A stretch of DNA of 38,474 nt from a virus (lineage: Duplodnaviria; Heunggongvirae; Uroviricota; Caudoviricetes). Numbering within the stretch: position 1 is the stretch's first letter; each line of letters starts with the position of its first letter. The stretch lies in IMG/VR virus record IMGVR_UViG_2778261226_000006. One strand, written 5' to 3'. This document shows, piece after piece, positions 1 to 37,540 of this stretch. A program made the translations under genes and the position numbers. Below the pieces are notes generated by a model. That model saw only the letters and a program-made list of their open reading frames with translations. It did no database searches and was not told the origin of the DNA.

Positions 1-1053
1 TTACGGGGTAATGCCAACCGCTGCCGCCACTTTGTCGCCACTTGGCAGCGTTGCCAGAGGATTGAAACGGAGCGCCGTTTCCAGATGATCTGGTGCCAGA
101 TGTGCGTAACGCATAGTCATTTTTATATCGTGGTGTCCGAGAATTTTTTGTAAGGCGAGAATGTTTCCACCCGACATCATGAAGTGCGCCGCAAATGTAT
201 GGCGCAGAACGTGTGTGAGTTGACCGCGAGGGAGCACGATAGACGTTTTTTCCATCACGGATAAAAATTGAAAATAGCAGTCTGTAAAGAAATTGAACCC
301 ATCAAGCGCCATGATCTCTTCGTAAAGCTCTTTACTGATAGGGATGCTTCTGTTTTTCTTCCCCTTCGTTCTGACAAAGGTAATTCGGTATTTGGTCACC
401 TGTGAGCGGGTAAGATTTACGGCTTCACGCCAGCGTGCGCCTGTGCTTAAGCATATCTTAACTACCAGTGCCAGAATCGGGTCCTGACGTTTACAATCAG
501 CCAGCAATTCAACAATCTGCTCATGGGTAAGCCATGCCATCTCTTTTTCTGCGATGGTGAATTTTCGCATGTTCTCCAGTGGGTTCGGATACGACCATTC
601 GCCCAGGCGGGATAGTTCGCTAAAAACACTACTTAGATAGCTTTGCTCCAGGTTAATGGTGACCGGGCTTGCTCCTTTCTTCCATTTCTCGCTGAAGTAG
701 ATCTCACCTGTCAGGCGTTTATCTCGATAGTGGGCAAACATTTTAGAGGTGAGATCGGTTGCTAGGGGATTGCCCAGAGCGTCAACCATCAACAGCAATT
801 TATCATAGACATGCTGCCCAGCGGTTAGAGATTTACCATGTAGTTTGAACCATAGCTCAACCACGTCTTTCAGTGTTCGACGATCCACTGATTCTCCCAG
901 CCAGGGCTTTGCTTCGGTTTCTTCCATCGTATGGCGCTCAAAAGCCAGAGCTTCGCCTTTGGTGGCGAATTGTTTACGCACACGACGCCCACTACGTCCG
1001 GCGGGGTAACATTCGCAAAGCCATTTTCCTGTGGTGAGTTTTCGTACTGCCAT
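1..1053 (-). CDS. int: Tyrosine integrase (P2/186-family phage integrase)
   Basis: Track ORF 1..1131 (-); preferred start is ATG at 1051-1053 (Met27 of track ORF) preceded by GGAGGG SD; C-terminal HxxR...Y signature (HVLRHTFAAH ... RYAHL); stop codon occupies window positions 1-3. Confidence 0.85.
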   Translation of the reverse strand: MAVRKLTTGKWLCECYPAGRSGRRVRKQFATKGEALAFERHTMEETEAKPWLGESVDRRTLKDVVELWFKLHGKSLTAGQHVYDKLLLMVDALGNPLATDLTSKMFAHYRDKRLTGEIYFSEKWKKGASPVTINLEQSYLSSVFSELSRLGEWSYPNPLENMRKFTIAEKEMAWLTHEQIVELLADCKRQDPILALVVKICLSTGARWREAVNLTRSQVTKYRITFVRTKGKKNRSIPISKELYEEIMALDGFNFFTDCYFQFLSVMEKTSIVLPRGQLTHVLRHTFAAHFMMSGGNILALQKILGHHDIKMTMRYAHLAPDHLETALRFNPLATLPSGDKVAAAVGITP

Positions 1054-1239
1054 AAAAAATGCCCTCCAATAGAGAGCATTTTTACTGTATGTATAACCAG
1101 TGTCAATGTATGAAATCCTGCGACCATACATCTCACTGAAGCCATAATGAAGTTGGCTATTTTTTGCTATGTGAGTATGTGACTTTTGCGGTTAGCCTGC
1201 GGCTCATTGTTATATTAGGCGCAGATATAAAAGCAAAAT

Positions 1240-1431
1240 TTATCGCGAGTTTTTAGTACAGATTTTTTTTGATTTACTAATAGTTCCATCATTGCAAACG
1301 AACTTTCCATCGGAGGTACAGTGAGAGACACCTCCCTTTTTCCCAGAACAAGGATAATTTTTAGCATAGGTAGTTAGTGGGTTTAATAACAAAGAGCATG
1401 ATAAAACCACAAAAAATACCTTACCAAGCAT
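1240..1431 (-). CDS. Small secreted Cys-rich basic peptide, unknown function (candidate lysogenic-conversion moron)
   Basis: 63-aa ORF immediately downstream of repressor gene on same strand; strong SD (GGGAGGA) 5-6 nt before ATG at 1429-1431; N-terminal hydrophobic signal-like segment [23 protein letters not shown] then ~40-aa Lys-rich region with 4 Cys; AT-rich. Confidence 0.5.
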
Positions 1432-1446: not shown

Positions 1447-2016
1447 TTACCTAACGTACTTAATTGTTAAACTTATAATTTTCCCAATTATTTCAACATC
1501 TTCTATCTTGCACTCGAAGGCTCTGTTTCCACCTTCAACGAAGATTCTTCCACCGGGTAAACGAGTAATGTCGCGGATTGTTATTTCGCCATCAATACTT
1601 ATTACCCATTTACCGTCACGTATATCATCAAATTCTTTATCACAAATAAATTCAGAATTGTTATCTGTGATGACAAAAGGTTTTTTAAACGTAGAGGGTA
1701 GAAATCCCTTATCAAAAATATAAAAACCGTCTTCACGCAAGGCACCATCAGATAATACATATTTAGCAACTTCCATAGTATTTGTATTACCTGAAGTTTG
1801 CTTTGAACCATGTCCGGTTGTGAGCCAATTAAGCGAGGTGCCCGTTTCAAGGGCGCACTGGATTACCCATTCTGCTGGGAATGAGTCACGCATGTAGCGT
1901 GTGGCGAGTGTACTTTTAGAGATTCCTAAATGATCGCACAACGCCTGTCGAGTTTTGAATCCATAAGCTTCTACCATGCGCTCTATAGCGCCTCGTCCGC
2001 CTTTCTCCAAATTCAT
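1447..2016 (-). CDS. cI: CI-type immunity repressor (186-like, long form with N-terminal HTH)
   Basis: Track ORF 1447..2022 begins with GTG; in-frame ATG at 2014-2016 has GGAG SD; HTH-like segment RQALCDHLGISKSTLATRYMRD; divergent from apl/cox-like gene; position between int and cox as in P2/186 prophages. Confidence 0.8.
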   Translation of the reverse strand: MNLEKGGRGAIERMVEAYGFKTRQALCDHLGISKSTLATRYMRDSFPAEWVIQCALETGTSLNWLTTGHGSKQTSGNTNTMEVAKYVLSDGALREDGFYIFDKGFLPSTFKKPFVITDNNSEFICDKEFDDIRDGKWVISIDGEITIRDITRLPGGRIFVEGGNRAFECKIEDVEIIGKIISLTIKYVR

Positions 2017-2141
2017 GGTCACTCCAAGTGAACTTTTATCTTGACGATTTCAATGTGCGATCGTATGTTTATGGTGTTCACAAAATACAAACGATCCGTA
2101 TTCGTCCTGATTAATCATCATTAAACGAGGAATGTTGCATC
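2017..2141. promoter_or_regulatory. Divergent lysis/lysogeny switch region (operators and promoters between cI and apl/cox)
   Basis: 125-bp intergenic region between divergently transcribed repressor and cox/apl; inverted hexamers GTGAAC (2028-2033) and GTTCAC (2076-2081); TTGACG -35-like hexamer at 2041-2046; exact operators not resolved. Confidence 0.35.
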
Positions 2142-2363
2142 ATGAGACCTAACATTTCAATCACTCTTACCACGCCTCATGTGACTATTGAACGCTATAG
2201 CGAGCTGACAGGGCTGTCCATCGATACCATCAATGACATGTTGGCTGACGGACGCCTTATCCGTCACCGTCTGCGCAAAGATAAAAAACGTGAAAAAGTG
2301 ATGATCAACATAGCAGCCATGACCGTTGATGCGCTTTCAGAATGCAATCTAAACCTTAATTAG
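2142..2363 (+). CDS. Cox/Apl-type excisionase and switch regulator
   Basis: 73-aa ORF, first gene of rightward early operon, SD ACGAGGAA before ATG 2142; size and position match P2 Cox / 186 Apl. Confidence 0.7.
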
Positions 2364-2395
2364 TTCGATTCTGAAATACATCAGAGGCATTGACC

Positions 2396-2905
2396 ATGTT
2401 TGATTACCAAGTTTCCAAACATCCACATTTTGATGAAGCCTGTCGTGCATTCGCATTGCGCCACAACCTAGTGCAACTGGCAGAACGTGCAGGCATGAAT
2501 GTGCAGATTCTGCGGAACAAGCTGAACCCAGCTCAACCTCATTTATTAACCGCACCAGAAATCTGGTTGCTTACCGATCTGACTGAAGATTCAACGCTGG
2601 TAGATGGCTTTCTGGCACAGATTCACTGCCTGCCATGTGTACCGATTAATGAGGTGGCAAAAGAGAAACTGCCGCATTACGTCATGAGTGCAACTGCAGA
2701 GATAGGGCGTGTCGCGGCAGGTGCGGTTTCTGGCGATGTAAAAACCAGTGCAGGCCGTCGTGATGCGATCAGCAGCATTAACTCTGTTACACGACTGATG
2801 GCGCTGGCTGCTGTTTCATTGCAGGCCCGTTTACAGGCTAATCCTGCGATGGCGAGTGCAGTTGATACCGTGACTGGCCTCGGTGCTTCATTCGGTTTGC
2901 TGTGA
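2396..2905 (+). CDS. cII: CII-like early regulatory protein (186 CII family)
   Basis: Track ORF starts at TTG 2390; ATG at 2396 with GAGG SD gives 169 aa, the size I recall for 186 CII; position immediately after apl/cox. Confidence 0.55.
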
Positions 2906-9825: not shown

Positions 9826-10350
9826 ATGACTGTTTTACACCTTGTAGCAGACCACCTTGTTAAGCAGGCTAATACAACCCATAGAAAGGGGGAGGTGCAC
9901 GCAATATTAGCAGATGCATATGGTCGTTCTGCTTTTAATCGGTATTATTATGCTTGTTTTCTTAACGTCCGTGAGTTTGTTTCAACTATTGATTCCAATT
10001 GGGGCAAGGTCAAGCATGCAGATGTTCCAAAATTATTACGTGATAGTGTAAGTAGAAAGATAGAAGTTGAGCTCCAAAAATCAGAAAAAATTGGCGATAT
10101 AACTTTATGTGAATATAAATCTAAAAAGAGCTTAATACGTACTTCACTGAACAATATGGCTTCAACTATGGCATTGGCATATACAATTAGGGGAGTTGTT
10201 GATTATGAGCCGGAAATTGAGATGATATTCTGTAATGGCAGTTTTTCGATTAATAAAACATCAGTGGCTTCGGCTAAGGGGTGGCTACAAACCATTAATT
10301 CAGAAAGATCGAAGGTTACCAGAATTATGAAGGAGATTGGCTTTGTCTAA
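9826..10350 (+). CDS. Hypothetical protein, upstream gene of pair preceding the retron (candidate accessory/effector)
   Basis: 174-aa ORF from ATG 9826; overlaps the next ORF; no Walker, HNH, TM or other recognisable motif by eye. Confidence 0.6.
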   Translation: MTVLHLVADHLVKQANTTHRKGEVHAILADAYGRSAFNRYYYACFLNVREFVSTIDSNWGKVKHADVPKLLRDSVSRKIEVELQKSEKIGDITLCEYKSKKSLIRTSLNNMASTMALAYTIRGVVDYEPEIEMIFCNGSFSINKTSVASAKGWLQTINSERSKVTRIMKEIGFV

Positions 10351-11080
10351 CCAGAAAATATTATCAGAATTGTTGGTAAAATTCCCGTTTATAAAAGTTA
10401 AAGATGTAACAGATTTTATGGATACAATTCTGTTGATCATCCCAATTAACAAAATAGTACCATTGTCTGCTTCGAATAGTATAACAAAACGCCAGATATC
10501 TTTATTGGTGAAACGAATAACAGAAAAGCTAAATGTAAGAGTGTTGATTAGTTACTCACCATTTTCAGATAAAGACAATATTGAAGCGGCTTTAGTGGCG
10601 TTAGCGAGAAGTAATTTTAAAAAAGGGAAGATATCTGATTTGAATTTATCTTTCTTTGATTCGCAAAACGCAGTGCTTTATGTCTTTTGTAAAAACCTTA
10701 CATTATCAGAACGCGAGAAGTGGGAGTCGTTAGTTGTAGGGATATTAAACGGTTTTAATATAAAAGTGACTTCATTTGTATATGAGGCTAAAAATAATCC
10801 TGAACCTACAATGATGGTTATTTTAAGAGCGGCAAAAAAATGTCAGCCCTTTGATCTTCCAAGATTGTTCAGTCAACTTGATAATGGCGATTATCATATT
10901 GAATCACTTGATTGGCTGAATGGGAAGCTAGACAACTTACGTAAGAAAGGATTTTTATTAAGAAGCCATGACGGAACTTATAGAATGACATTGTCAGGGT
11001 TAGAAATAGTTCCAGTGACTAAATCTAGGCAAAGTTCTGATATAGAGAGGGTCCTTTATCTTGCACGCAAACATCTATAG
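10337..11080 (+). CDS. Hypothetical protein, second gene of pair preceding the retron (candidate accessory/effector)
   Basis: 247 aa as tracked from TTG 10337; likely start TTG 10343 with AAGGAG SD (10330-10335), implying translational coupling to the upstream ORF; alternating hydrophobic/charged N-terminal region, C-terminal segment KKGFLLRSHDGTYRMTLSGLEIV; family unknown. Confidence 0.6.
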   Translation: MALSNQKILSELLVKFPFIKVKDVTDFMDTILLIIPINKIVPLSASNSITKRQISLLVKRITEKLNVRVLISYSPFSDKDNIEAALVALARSNFKKGKISDLNLSFFDSQNAVLYVFCKNLTLSEREKWESLVVGILNGFNIKVTSFVYEAKNNPEPTMMVILRAAKKCQPFDLPRLFSQLDNGDYHIESLDWLNGKLDNLRKKGFLLRSHDGTYRMTLSGLEIVPVTKSRQSSDIERVLYLARKHL

Positions 11081-11089
11081 TGGTATATT
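11061..11089 (+). promoter_or_regulatory. Candidate sigma70 promoter for retron msr-msd-ret transcript
   Basis: -35 TTGCAC (11061-11066), 17-bp spacer, -10 TATATT (11084-11089); predicted start about 11096, coinciding with the a1 repeat. Confidence 0.45.
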
Positions 11090-11095
11090 CGCGTT

Positions 11096-11268
11096 GGTAG
11101 TGGCGTTCACGAGAGTATGCATCATGCTCATTTGTGAAGGTCGCGGACAGAATGTGCGCCTGCGAATCAGCAGTCGTTCCTTCGAAACGTCTGCTGATTC
11201 GCAGGCGTCATCAACGAAAGTTTTCATCAGCTTTGCTTAAGGATTGACCTTATGAAAACGCCACTACC
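11096..11268 (+). ncRNA. Candidate retron non-coding RNA (msr-msd)
   Basis: 12-nt perfect inverted repeat GGTAGTGGCGTT (11096-11107) / AACGCCACTACC (11257-11268) as a1/a2; GAGAG immediately after a1 (candidate branching G region); 17-bp perfect stem 11157-11173 / 11191-11207 as msd hairpin; directly upstream of and overlapping the start of the retron-type RT. Confidence 0.5.
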
Positions 11269-12229
11269 CTTATTTTTCACATTCACTGATGCCGAACAGT
11301 TTCTTAAGGCGTTGAGCACACCGCTGAGAGATAGATATTCTGCGGAACTTATTCGACTACAAGGCCTCAGGCTTCCCCCATTAGTTTCTTGGAGTATCTT
11401 GTCTGTTGCCATTGGCGTAAGCCCACAATTTATTACTTCGTTAATTAAGAATAAGTCAAAATACTATCGTGTTTTTTCTATTTCCAAAGGAAGAGGAAAG
11501 AAAAAAAGAATTATTGAAGCACCCAAGGTTAGTATAAAAATCATTCAGTCTTGGGTCGCTCATCATTTAAGCATTAATCATAGTCTTGGCATAAGTGAAA
11601 ATGCATATGCTTTTATCCCAGGTAAGAATGGGATATATGAAGCTGCAAGTAAACATTGTGGTGCAAAATGGATCCTGTCTATTGATTTAAGAGATTTTTT
11701 CCATACGATCACTTCAGATATAGTGATTTCAACATTAGTTGAAATCGGATATAGAGCCGATCAGGCTGCTAAATTGAGTGAATTACTTACCTTGAATCAG
11801 AGACTTCCGCAAGGTGCGCCAAGTAGCCCTGTTATCTCAAATTTAGTATTTAGGTCAACTGACTTAAAGATTAATGAGTTGATTTCTAATACGGGTATTA
11901 AATATACTAGATATGCTGATGATTTGACCTTCTCCGGTGATGATGAAACATTTGATATCGAGGAACTTAAAGATAATGTTGTAGAGTTGTTACTATCTGA
12001 TAATTGGGTTGTGGCTGAGGAAAAACTCAGAATAGCTAGGATTCCTAATAGATTAAAAGTACATGGTTTTCTAGTTCATGAAAATAAACCTAGATTGACT
12101 AAAGGCTATCGAAATAAAATTAGAGCATATAAACATTTATTGAGGACTGGGAAAATAGTTGAGAAGGATTTTGATAAAATTAAAGGGCATGTTAACTATA
12201 GTGAATATATTGATAGATTGAATGAGTAA
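11252..12229 (+). CDS. ret: Retron-type reverse transcriptase
   Basis: 325 aa; RT motifs LSIDLRDFFHTIT, LPQGAPSSPVISNLVF and YTRYADDLTFSG (YADD catalytic box), plus RLKVHGFLV in the position of the retron VTG motif; N-terminal Y..F.I.K..G..R.I..P pattern; close by-eye similarity to Ec86-type retron RT motifs. Confidence 0.9.
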   Translation: MKTPLPLFFTFTDAEQFLKALSTPLRDRYSAELIRLQGLRLPPLVSWSILSVAIGVSPQFITSLIKNKSKYYRVFSISKGRGKKKRIIEAPKVSIKIIQSWVAHHLSINHSLGISENAYAFIPGKNGIYEAASKHCGAKWILSIDLRDFFHTITSDIVISTLVEIGYRADQAAKLSELLTLNQRLPQGAPSSPVISNLVFRSTDLKINELISNTGIKYTRYADDLTFSGDDETFDIEELKDNVVELLLSDNWVVAEEKLRIARIPNRLKVHGFLVHENKPRLTKGYRNKIRAYKHLLRTGKIVEKDFDKIKGHVNYSEYIDRLNE

Positions 12230-35631: not shown

Positions 35632-35698
35632 TTTGCCGCCAAAGATAAGTAAAGTAGTTTCTAACTTATTGATTATGGAATGGAAGAATAGCAGGCAA

Positions 35699-35742
35699 CA
35701 AAAAACCCATCAACCTTGAACCGAAATGGCGGGGTTGATGGG
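35699..35742 (-). terminator. Rho-independent terminator downstream of ybjL
   Basis: CCCATCAACC (35706-35715) / GGTTGATGGG (35733-35742) 10-bp stem; on the minus strand followed by a U-tract (plus-strand A-run 35700-35705). Confidence 0.6.
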
Positions 35743-35854
35743 CTCCACAAAATGGGGACATCAAAGAAAAGCAGTGGCACTAATTAAGACTGATGCCCTG
35801 CGGAAAAGTTCTGCGGTTGTGCAAAAAAATTTCATTTTCAGGGCAACTTCAGTT

Positions 35855-37540
35855 TTATCCTAATCCTGGCCATACCATGACGATGATTGTCCCTGCCAGC
35901 GTCAGCAGGACGTTGGCGATTGCGTAGGTGCCCGCATAGCCCAGCGCAGGGATGTTACTGCGAGCTGTATCACTGATGATCTCCATTGCCGGCGCGCAGG
36001 TGCGTGCGCCCATCATTGCGCCGAACAACAGTGCGCGGTTCATTCGCAATACATAAGCACCGAACAAGAAACAGATAACCACGGGCACAAGACTGACAAT
36101 TAATCCGGCAATCAACATCTGACCGCCAATCGCGCCCAGGCCGTTATTAATACCGCTACCGGCGCTCAGACCAACGCCTGCCATAAACACCATCAAGCCG
36201 AACTCTTTCACCATGCTTAATGCACCTTGCGGAATGTAACCGAAGGTCGGGTGGTTAGCACGCATAAAGCCCAGCATAATTCCGGCGAATAACAACCCGG
36301 CAGCGTTCCCCATGCCGAAACTGAATGTGCTGAACTGGAAGGTGATCATCCCGATCATCAGCCCAATAACAAAGAAGGCGCAAAATGCCAGCAGGTCAGT
36401 GACCTGGCTGTGAATCGAGATAAAGCCGATGCGATCGGCGATGGTTTTTACGCGACGGGCATCACCGCTGACTTGTAAAACGTCACCTTTGTTAAGCACG
36501 ACGTTGTCATCTATCGGCATCTCAATCTGGCTACGAATGACGCGGTTAAGGAAGCAACCGTGATCGGTCAACTTCAGTTGTGCGAGACGTTTACCTACAG
36601 CGTTATGGTTTTTAACGACCACTTCTTCAGTGACGATACGCATGTCGAGAAGGTCACGATCGAAAACTTCTTTACCGTTACGGAAGCTGGGATCGAGTCG
36701 GGCATGGGCGTCGGGATAGCCTACCAACGCTATTTCATCGCCCATTTGTAGCACGGCATCACCGTCTGGATTTGCCAGAATCCCGTTACGTCGAATACGT
36801 TCAATGTAGCAGCCGGTTTGTCGATAAATACCCAGTTCACGCAGATTTTTGCCGTCGGTCCAGGCCACCAGCTCCGGGCCGACGCGATAGGCGCGGATCA
36901 CCGGTAAATAAACCTTACGGTTGGCATCAGTGTCCAGGCCACGTTCGCGGGCGATTTGCTGGGCGCTGGTCTGTAAGTCCTGATGCTGCAATTTCGGCAA
37001 GTAACGCGCACCAACAATCAAACTCACCAGACCGATTAAATAGGTTAAGGCATACCCGAGGCTCAGATTATCCAGTGCCAGTGAGAGCTGCCTGCTTTCC
37101 ATGCCGAAATGACGCAGTGTATCGCCAGCACCGACCAGAACCGGTGTCGACGTCATAGAGCCTGCTAACATACCGGCCGTCAGGCCAATATCCCAGCCAA
37201 ACAGCTTACCTAACCCTAAGGCGATCACCAGCGCACTGCCAACCATCACCAGTGCTAACATTAGGTAATTTTTCCCATCGCGAAAAAAAATGGAAAAAAA
37301 GTTCGGTCCGGCTTCGACCCCGACGCAGAAAATAAACAGCATAAAGCCAAGATTAAGCGCATCGGTGTTAATGCTGAAATGTTGTTGGCCTAATAACAGC
37401 GATACGACTAAAACGCCAATGGAATTACCCAGTTGGATCGAACCAAGTCGTAACTTTCCGAGACATAGCCCAAGCGCGAGGACCACAAATAATAACAGAA
37501 TGTAATTCCCATTTAACAATTCGGCGACGTTTATATTCAC
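35855..37540 (-). CDS. ybjL: Putative transporter YbjL (host gene)
   Basis: 561 aa; polytopic membrane protein with central soluble domains; sequence recognised as E. coli YbjL from memory. Confidence 0.85.

Follow-up and report, generated by a model that had tools for sequence, protein, structure and literature searches.

Glo of vibriophage K139, a periplasmic phage-exclusion protein (PMC4870250), carries a signal peptide, and its gene belongs to the lysogenic operon of this Peduoviridae phage, where it lies between the repressor gene cI and the integrase gene int. The cI-int interval of K139-like phages has been described by Rousset et al. as a defence hotspot (PMC9122126), and a 2026 survey places a minor defence hotspot of P2 between integrase and primase (PMC13586616). 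Two further exported proteins are close to the gene considered here: YdcA of E. coli K-12 (b1419; PF27300/PRK10040), and Dis2 (Lpg0823) of Legionella, which lies near the outer membrane in the Dot/Icm cap and has two similar lobes and five disulfides (PMC8486379). We analyzed IMG/VR record IMGVR_UViG_2778261226_000006, a stretch of 38,474 nucleotides from a virus of the Caudoviricetes (hereafter the window), and within it the gene at 1240..1431 on the minus strand, between cI and int, which encodes a 63-residue pre-protein of the YdcA family. It is a real, already annotated gene of a known family under strongly purifying selection, and YdcA genes repeatedly accompany CI-type repressors, in several lineages of the Peduoviridae. 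The best overall explanation, which we place slightly on the probable side, is that its product would be a periplasmic binding module co-made with the repressor and possibly directed against incoming DNA. The coupling to CI-type repressors, the copy in Haemophilus phages HP2 and S2, the link to Dis2, and the fusions of the family to nucleases are new here.

A conserved member of the YdcA family

The coding sequence (stop codon at 1240-1242) is called identically in the list of open reading frames (ORFs) and by PGAP, and RefSeq names its product 'YdcA family protein' (WP_001321204.1). Its Shine-Dalgarno sequence, GGGAGG (1437-1442, minus), lies 5 nt before the ATG at 1429-1431, within the 15-nt gap that follows the cI stop codon (TAA, 1447-1449), both as read from the sequence. 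A preliminary description of the DNA had proposed a 63-residue ORF with a strong ribosome-binding site, placed between cI and int on the same strand, with a signal-peptide-like N-terminus and a Lys-rich mature region of about 40 residues holding four cysteines; all of this was borne out, and the search against protein families added a family name. The product scores 116.1 bits against NCBIfam model NF007463 (PRK10040.1-2; cut-off 93; residues 5-63) and matches phrog_6000 with E 4.6e-34, whereas against the sister model NF007462 it reaches 68 bits, under the cut-off of 118. Homologues at 97% identity carry Pfam PF27300 ('YdcA'); a Pfam-A scan of the ORF itself, with a copy of Pfam that does not include PF27300, returned a noise match only. 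A profile search collected 469 YdcA cluster representatives at E <= 0.001, the sequence being kept across bacterial orders, and the pattern C-x9-C-x6/7-C-x11-C, together with GG[IV] and DG..S.SK, is found in 139 of 149 YdcA representatives. The ORF shows each of the family traits, namely a hidden Markov model score above the cut-off, a signal peptide followed by the domain, and the four-cysteine pattern with its motifs.

Selection on the gene is evident from E. coli alleles, which differ by 10-11 synonymous and 1-2 non-synonymous substitutions (dN/dS 0.02-0.04; binomial P ~4e-6), the sole replacements being T20A, within the signal peptide, and K24R, at +1 of the mature part. A scan of IMG/VR returned more than 532 loci, the best 80 of which were looked at; all of these are near-identical copies, so the scan gave population data and no new contexts. 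In all 80 the ORF is intact, with an adjacent cI that varies between 87 and 100% identity. Of 5426 complete E. coli genomes, 632 contain the DNA of 1112-1446, BL21 and ATCC 8739 among them.

Signal peptide and mature peptide

The pre-protein starts with the n-region MLGK, a 12-residue hydrophobic core, and the c-region NPLTTYA, so that codons 1-23 (1363..1431, minus) are predicted to form a signal peptide that signal peptidase I would cleave after Ala23, between TYA and K. This call was made by sequence rules and family conservation. The alanine at -1 is invariant in 29 of 29 aligned homologues, and the residue at -3 is read as A, S, or T. In the family alignment, the first ~23 residues are hypervariable yet hydrophobic, and the following ~36 are highly conserved, with four invariant cysteines. 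A lipoprotein reading of Cys12 (VLSC) was rejected, as just 11 residues precede this cysteine and it is not conserved in the aligned homologues.

The mature peptide (1243..1362, minus) has 40 residues, 8 Lys, 1 Arg, 2 Asp, and 4 Cys among them, a mass of 4.27 kDa, and an isoelectric point of 9.64. Its four invariant cysteines are spaced C-x9-C-x7-C-x11-C and accompanied by the motifs GKKGG and SxSKK, the invariant alignment columns being C28, C38, C46, C58, K32, G33, G34, D48, G49, S52, S54, and K55. In an AlphaFold2 model, the mature part (pLDDT 81) is composed of a short helical turn and a beta-hairpin.

Comparison with E. coli YdcA and Legionella Dis2

YdcA of E. coli K-12 has the same architecture as the phage protein, a signal peptide followed by a ~36-residue domain with four cysteines, GxKGG, and SxSKK, and the mature regions are identical at 26 of 37 positions (~70%). 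The two differ in that the E. coli gene is chromosomal, next to cybB and not phage-borne; the phage protein, in turn, matches NF007463 rather than NF007462, begins with another signal peptide, and is the more basic of the two. E. coli W became sensitive to 300 mM 3-hydroxypropionate when its chromosomal ydcA was deleted, and acid induction via YdcI is cited in the same report (PMC7642389).

Dis2 (PDB 7MUC chain AN) is the only protein of solved structure with detectable similarity, at E 3.1e-5 in phmmer and 1.6e-4 in a profile search. In Foldseek it is also the top match of the AlphaFold2 model (prob 0.94, TMq 0.64, 38% identity over 39 columns), the next match having a prob of 0.05. A Dis2 orthologue is annotated with PF27300 (P0228, P0229), and both Dis2 lobes align to the YdcA motif. 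Dis2 (PDB 7MUC/7MUD) is exported and pinned by disulfides, as is predicted for the phage protein, but it is a secretion-machine subunit with two tandem lobes and five disulfides, whereas the phage protein resembles a single lobe with four cysteines. No genes of a type IV secretion system (T4SS) are annotated in the near-identical RefSeq prophage, and the phage protein does not belong to such a system. Dis2 has been described as Legionella-specific, without homologues, and dispensable (PMC8486379, PMC12716638). The alignments suggest that it is a tandem of YdcA-like modules, and because it is apparently built from two of these, Dis2 is probably not Legionella-specific.

The interval between cI and int in related phages

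At its start, the window carries the minus-strand lysogeny module of a prophage of the P2/186-like type (Peduoviridae). The cI repressor gene (1447..2022, minus; PGAP start 2016), the upstream gene of the same transcription unit, is of the 186/HP1 type (PF07022 2.8e-33, PF16452 2e-28), and the downstream gene is int (1..1053, minus), for a tyrosine integrase (PF24624 3.2e-32, PF00589 7.2e-22); the immediate neighbours of the ORF are these two and nothing else. On the plus strand lie an apl/cox-like gene (2142..2363) and cII (2390..2905). The statement that P2 has no gene in this position stands, the 115-nt gap between C and int of P2 holding no annotated gene. The repressor module here is CI of the 186/HP1 type and not P2 C; in phage 186, cI and int overlap.

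The integrase and cII proteins are 99-100% identical to their counterparts in two phages, 4LV2017 of Klebsiella and 813R9 of Escherichia (vB_EcoM-813R9), whereas cI is just 48-53% identical. Between cI and int, 4LV2017 encodes a 349-residue protein of unknown function and 813R9 the defence protein PD-Lambda-1 (E 3.1e-120; L005 3591-5267). A megablast of 1000-2100 against phage genomes gave a match to 4LV2017 over 1001-1111 only; because just the start of int was matched, the cassette is absent, at the DNA level, from the collection of isolated phages. The int-proximal part of the spacer (~1054-1111) alone is common to sibling phages with other cargo, and the spacer is 93% identical between E. 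coli alleles. Since DNA homology with 4LV2017 and 813R9 ends at ~1111, the exchanged cassette is cI plus cargo.

At least five prophage lineages, with cI proteins only 27-71% identical, share the order cI, YdcA gene, optional cargo, int, and among the enterobacterial prophage lineages, with cI proteins 34-71% identical to one another, the mature YdcA part is identical at 30 of 36 to 36 of 38 positions. In E. coli and relatives, a 61-residue form follows cI, and a gene for a KAP-family NTPase is inserted downstream (L092 142-1473; L177 3698-5029); a prophage of Enterobacter hormaechei has a 56-residue form that ends 2 nt before int, and the order cI, YdcA gene, int is also found in three Yersinia species. 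Haemophilus phage HP2 contains an unannotated homologue of 60 residues (L001 2920-3102, corresponding to NC_003315 2487-2669), and the region of phage S2 matches. Its mature part is ~69% identical by a count from the alignment, and its gene lies upstream of int and directly after that for a 191-residue CI, its start codon overlapping the cI stop codon (TAATG). The HP2/S2 locus differs from that of the window in having a gene for a second exported protein, orf1(S), with a tRNA_anti-like OB fold, before int, and its host is a naturally competent member of the Pasteurellaceae. The same interval of HP1 is taken up by four unrelated small ORFs, and that of K139 by orf2 and glo, the product of glo being annotated as periplasmic and as acting in phage exclusion.

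The ORF is accessory cargo of the lysogeny operon, because P2 and 186 lack it and its composition is atypical; in 813R9, 4LV2017, and HP1 it is replaced. The preliminary description had noted an AT-rich patch, and the ORF has 34.9% GC against 50.8% in the whole window, but the patch extends beyond the ORF, the spacer having 37.6% and cI 40.1% GC. The large cargo proteins share the slot and its flanks (int and cII 99-100% identical at the protein level). PD-Lambda-1 (558 residues, with a T5orf172 nuclease domain) and the KAP NTPase (443 residues) are cytoplasmic and unrelated to YdcA in sequence, and the gene for the NTPase comes in addition to the YdcA gene, on its downstream side, rather than in its place. 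Glo, which shares the position and the signal peptide, differs in having 137 residues and no cysteine pattern, and in K139 orf2 separates glo from cI; a comparison of the two proteins with hhalign paired 12 signal-peptide residues only, with a probability of 9.7%, so homology between them was not found.

Architectures and contexts across the family

The YdcA domain comes directly after a signal peptide, starting within residue 45 in 121 of 139 representatives (median start, residue 29). Two to three copies can stand in tandem (P0065-P0067), and the domain is also fused to Lys-rich repeats or tails. In addition, it forms the N-terminal module of exported nucleases whose folds are unrelated, among them Endonuclease_NS proteins (P0153, P0161, P0184, and, in Methylococcales, L048 4989-5933). 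It also precedes SNase in P0102 and P0213 and a PLD-like domain in P0170, and a weakly supported fusion to HNH is present in P0187. Members of the family are carried by small mobilisable plasmids of Acinetobacter and Psychrobacter, by Rhizobium plasmids, and by phages of Moraxella and Acinetobacter. In the 4-5 kb plasmids pApiMCR53a (A. pittii, L087 728-1697) and pA40P1 (Psychrobacter, L088 1281-2440), a YdcA-like gene is followed by one for a membrane-anchored protein of 243-319 residues, homologous between the two plasmids, and the pair may be a Moraxellaceae-specific two-gene module. This was the only conserved partner found downstream of YdcA homologues, with nothing in common with orf1(S) of HP2 or with the window. 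Neighbours across 76-77 species-level loci are heterogeneous (cybB, CI repressor, integrase, gp25-like, and T5orf172 genes) and give no single functional signal. The family behaves as a module for binding or targeting would; enzymes, toxins, and inhibitors of one specific target do not behave in this way.

Enterobacterial chromosomes also encode a paralogue of ~135 residues, in which the YdcA domain is joined to a Cys-containing C-terminal extension (match from 5001 onwards). In most of its loci (L026, L040-L042, L045-L047, L050-L052, L063, L066, L067, L069, L077, and L083) a gene for a ~414-residue T5orf172/MUG113 protein follows, and in some (the L040 group) a gp25/TssE-like gene precedes.

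Probable expression from the lysogenic operon

A scan with promoter consensus sequences found no promoter-like site between cI and the ORF. The candidate pL promoter, TTGAAA-17-CAACAT (2132..2160, minus), with its -35 element inside the 5' end of the apl-like gene, was not reported by that scan and was assigned by its position, which matches that of the annotated pL of phage 186. Beyond the ORF, the 186-nt spacer before the int ATG (1054..1239, minus) folds better as RNA than shuffled controls do (z -3.75). It contains a 13-bp hairpin followed by a U-run (1055-1083, minus; -17.5 kcal/mol, z -5.68; -10.2 kcal/mol on the plus strand), the 3' arm of which holds the Shine-Dalgarno sequence of int, GGAGGG. 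This terminator-like hairpin, the sole one on this strand, sits 157 nt downstream of the ORF in the int module, and a fold scan detected no terminator-like site between it and the ORF. A stem-loop at ~1170-1245 was considered as an intrinsic terminator directly 3' of the ORF and rejected, being not significant (z -1.63) and without a U-run. The consensus scan also reported a promoter-like sequence, TTGACA-17-AAAAAT (1078-1106, minus), which overlaps the 5' arm of the hairpin; because of this overlap, a transcript started there would leave the int ribosome-binding site free. An Rfam scan gave nothing at E <= 1 within 950-2200.

On the basis of the predicted folding, the hairpin at 1055-1083 probably separates int from cI-YdcA, as a boundary or an attenuator, which suggests that int may be terminated or masked on transcripts reading through from pL. 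In the simplest reading, cI and the YdcA gene would form a constitutive lysogenic unit, with int either attenuated or separately driven. The ORF appears, from the consensus scans, to use pL and to have neither a promoter nor a terminator of its own; it is probably expressed in lysogens, as operon architecture and selection indicate. The earlier view of the gene as a lysogenic-conversion moron accordingly holds in part: it is accessory, and its composition is atypical, but it is no orphan, belonging as it does to a family with a core E. coli gene, and it has no promoter-like site of its own.

Proposed function and alternative explanations

We propose that the ORF and cI share a transcript from the lysogenic promoter and that the ORF, 15 nt past the cI stop codon, is translated by means of a strong ribosome-binding site of its own; for this reason, the protein would be made continuously in lysogens. 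The pre-protein would be exported by Sec and cleaved after Ala23, and oxidation in the periplasm would yield a 40-residue, two-disulfide, strongly cationic mini-protein that stays there. Its action in the cell envelope would be that of a binding module standing alone, and not of an enzyme or toxin. Its ligand would most likely be a polyanion or an outer-membrane-proximal complex, and the most likely benefit to the prophage would be to hinder the entry of foreign DNA through the periplasm, in a manner similar to superinfection exclusion, by analogy with Glo. A benefit to the lysogen is consistent with the presence of PD-Lambda-1 and Glo in the same interval elsewhere, and nucleases placed in the periplasm are a known means by which mobile elements destroy DNA on its way in (PMC12378983). 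Export, disulfide formation, and co-transcription are very probable steps of this scheme. The action on polyanions or DNA entry is a tentative analogy that would sooner fail than hold. That the YdcA domain at large is an unrecognised periplasmic or extracellular module binding nucleic acids or DNA-entry sites, and intercepting DNA that crosses the periplasm, is doubtful.

A different role is offered by the host paralogue: the prophage copy could supplement or replace host YdcA as a fitness factor against envelope or acid stress, with no part in excluding DNA. The similarity of the mature regions, the 3-hydroxypropionate sensitivity of the ydcA mutant, and the cited acid induction (PMC7642389) all point this way. 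The phenotype, however, is one indirect report on the paralogue, NCBIfam separates the phage type from the NF007462 type, the cut-off of which the ORF misses, and neither the nuclease fusions nor the position after cI across divergent phages would be explained; we therefore consider this role rather unlikely. Dis2, as the only structural relative, raises instead the idea that the protein is an accessory part docking on a machine of the outer membrane (a secretin, a T4SS, a type VI secretion system, or a phage receptor complex), which it would modify or block through protein contacts, since Dis2 touches DotC, DotD, and DotK under the outer membrane (PMC8486379, PMC12716638). That the 135-residue enterobacterial paralogue adjoins a gp25/TssE-like gene and that some copies are named 'conjugal transfer protein' in UniRef fit with docking. 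Yet secretion-system genes are absent from the window, the single lobe here contrasts with the two lobes and five disulfides of Dis2, the UniRef name comes with no stated basis, and the nuclease fusions are again left aside, which makes a docking subunit unlikely.

The remaining explanations carry little weight. Small disulfide-rich inhibitors form an established class of periplasmic proteins, and a protease or lysozyme inhibitor could, for instance, shield the lysogen from muralytic or proteolytic enzymes of phage or host; the ORF even gives sub-threshold matches to Pin-II type proteinase inhibitors (E 0.24-2.2), but these fall short of significance and were not seen again in fold searches, and no gene for a target enzyme is linked to the ORF, so that an inhibitor is very unlikely. 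The preliminary description had suggested a secreted toxin or bacteriocin-like peptide, and a toxin, bacteriocin, or antimicrobial peptide that kills competitors could indeed look like this mature part, which is small, cationic (net ~+7), disulfide-stabilised, and defensin-like. That suggestion is not supported: the leader is a Sec-type AxA signal and nothing else; no ABC or type I secretion exporter, double-glycine leader, or lysis or immunity gene, such as a class II microcin or bacteriocin would call for, is found in a neighbourhood made up of cI and int only; the family includes core chromosomal genes and enzyme-fused domains, and the same cells carry the paralogue ydcA. Killing is thus highly improbable, and 'envelope factor' is the part of the earlier interpretation that is still viable. 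Finally, lying between cI and int and followed by a structured spacer whose hairpin masks the int ribosome-binding site, the ORF could be non-functional or purely regulatory, such as a spacer whose translation tunes int expression. This is hardly credible for a sequence with a dN/dS of 0.02-0.04 that is kept at the amino acid level across bacterial orders (469 representatives), its mature peptide being conserved while its signal peptide diverges.

Several observations weigh against a periplasmic module that counters incoming DNA. The host already carries a core chromosomal ydcA, and the sole phenotypes reported for ydcA concern organic-acid tolerance (PMC7642389). Dis2 binds proteins (DotC, DotD, and DotK), not DNA, and its deletion has subtle effects, the protein being dispensable (PMC12716638). 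Members of the family differ in the net charge of the domain, from -1 to +7 with a median of +3, and the export signal and the disulfides of the phage protein are predictions, the former by sequence rules. No PADLOC-DB 2.0 family matched the ORF at E <= 0.01, and the literature on ydcA and the RefSeq accessions gave no transcript, peptide, phenotype, expression, or localisation data for the phage gene. Moreover, no nuclease or partner gene adjoins the ORF in the window, so what the nuclease fusions indicate may not apply to a protein that stands alone. It should also be noted that in E. coli O19:H7 730V1 (L093 373-1655) the 3' end of the ORF is cut by ISKpn26, with cI intact; because one lysogen carries this truncated copy, the ORF is dispensable for lysogen viability.

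Other features of the window

A type IX retron-like defence cassette lies at 9826-12229 on the plus strand, in the hotspot between gpA and the portal gene of P2. It comprises HEPN_IX (9826-10350, E 1.4e-52), HTH_IX (10337-11080, E 1.5e-61), and RT_IX (11252-12229, E 4.2e-129), all on the plus strand, and the 172-nt gap before RT_IX could hold the msr/msd RNA. Near the right end are the small RNA RybB (35697-35775, minus; 105 bits), the sole Rfam match of the whole window, and a gene for an Asp-Al_Ex/TrkA_C permease (35855-37540, minus). Because these two lie there, the right-hand ~3 kb are probably host chromosome, and the prophage probably sits between rcdA and rybB.

Implications

The gene is common and easy to test, but the findings point to no unusual mechanism. 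A selected, lysogen-expressed function is marked by three features: the conservation of the mature peptide beside a diverging repressor, the location in a slot for defence and exclusion genes, and the nuclease fusions. The ISKpn26-truncated allele of 730V1 provides a natural knock-out that is usable for phenotype comparison. Since the exact cassette is found in about 1 in 9 complete E. coli genomes (632 of 5426), those of the laboratory strains BL21 and ATCC 8739 included, a 4-kDa exported protein is probably made constitutively in very widely used cells. Were the reading of the YdcA domain as an interceptor of DNA in the periplasm true, P2/186-like temperate phages would co-express YdcA with their repressor as a new, very small class of superinfection-exclusion or anti-horizontal gene transfer proteins. 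Stand-alone YdcA would then be deployed by phages and plasmids, especially in Enterobacterales and in competent Haemophilus, Moraxella, Acinetobacter, and Neisseria, and the same reading would give a function to YdcA of E. coli and to the lobes of Legionella Dis2.

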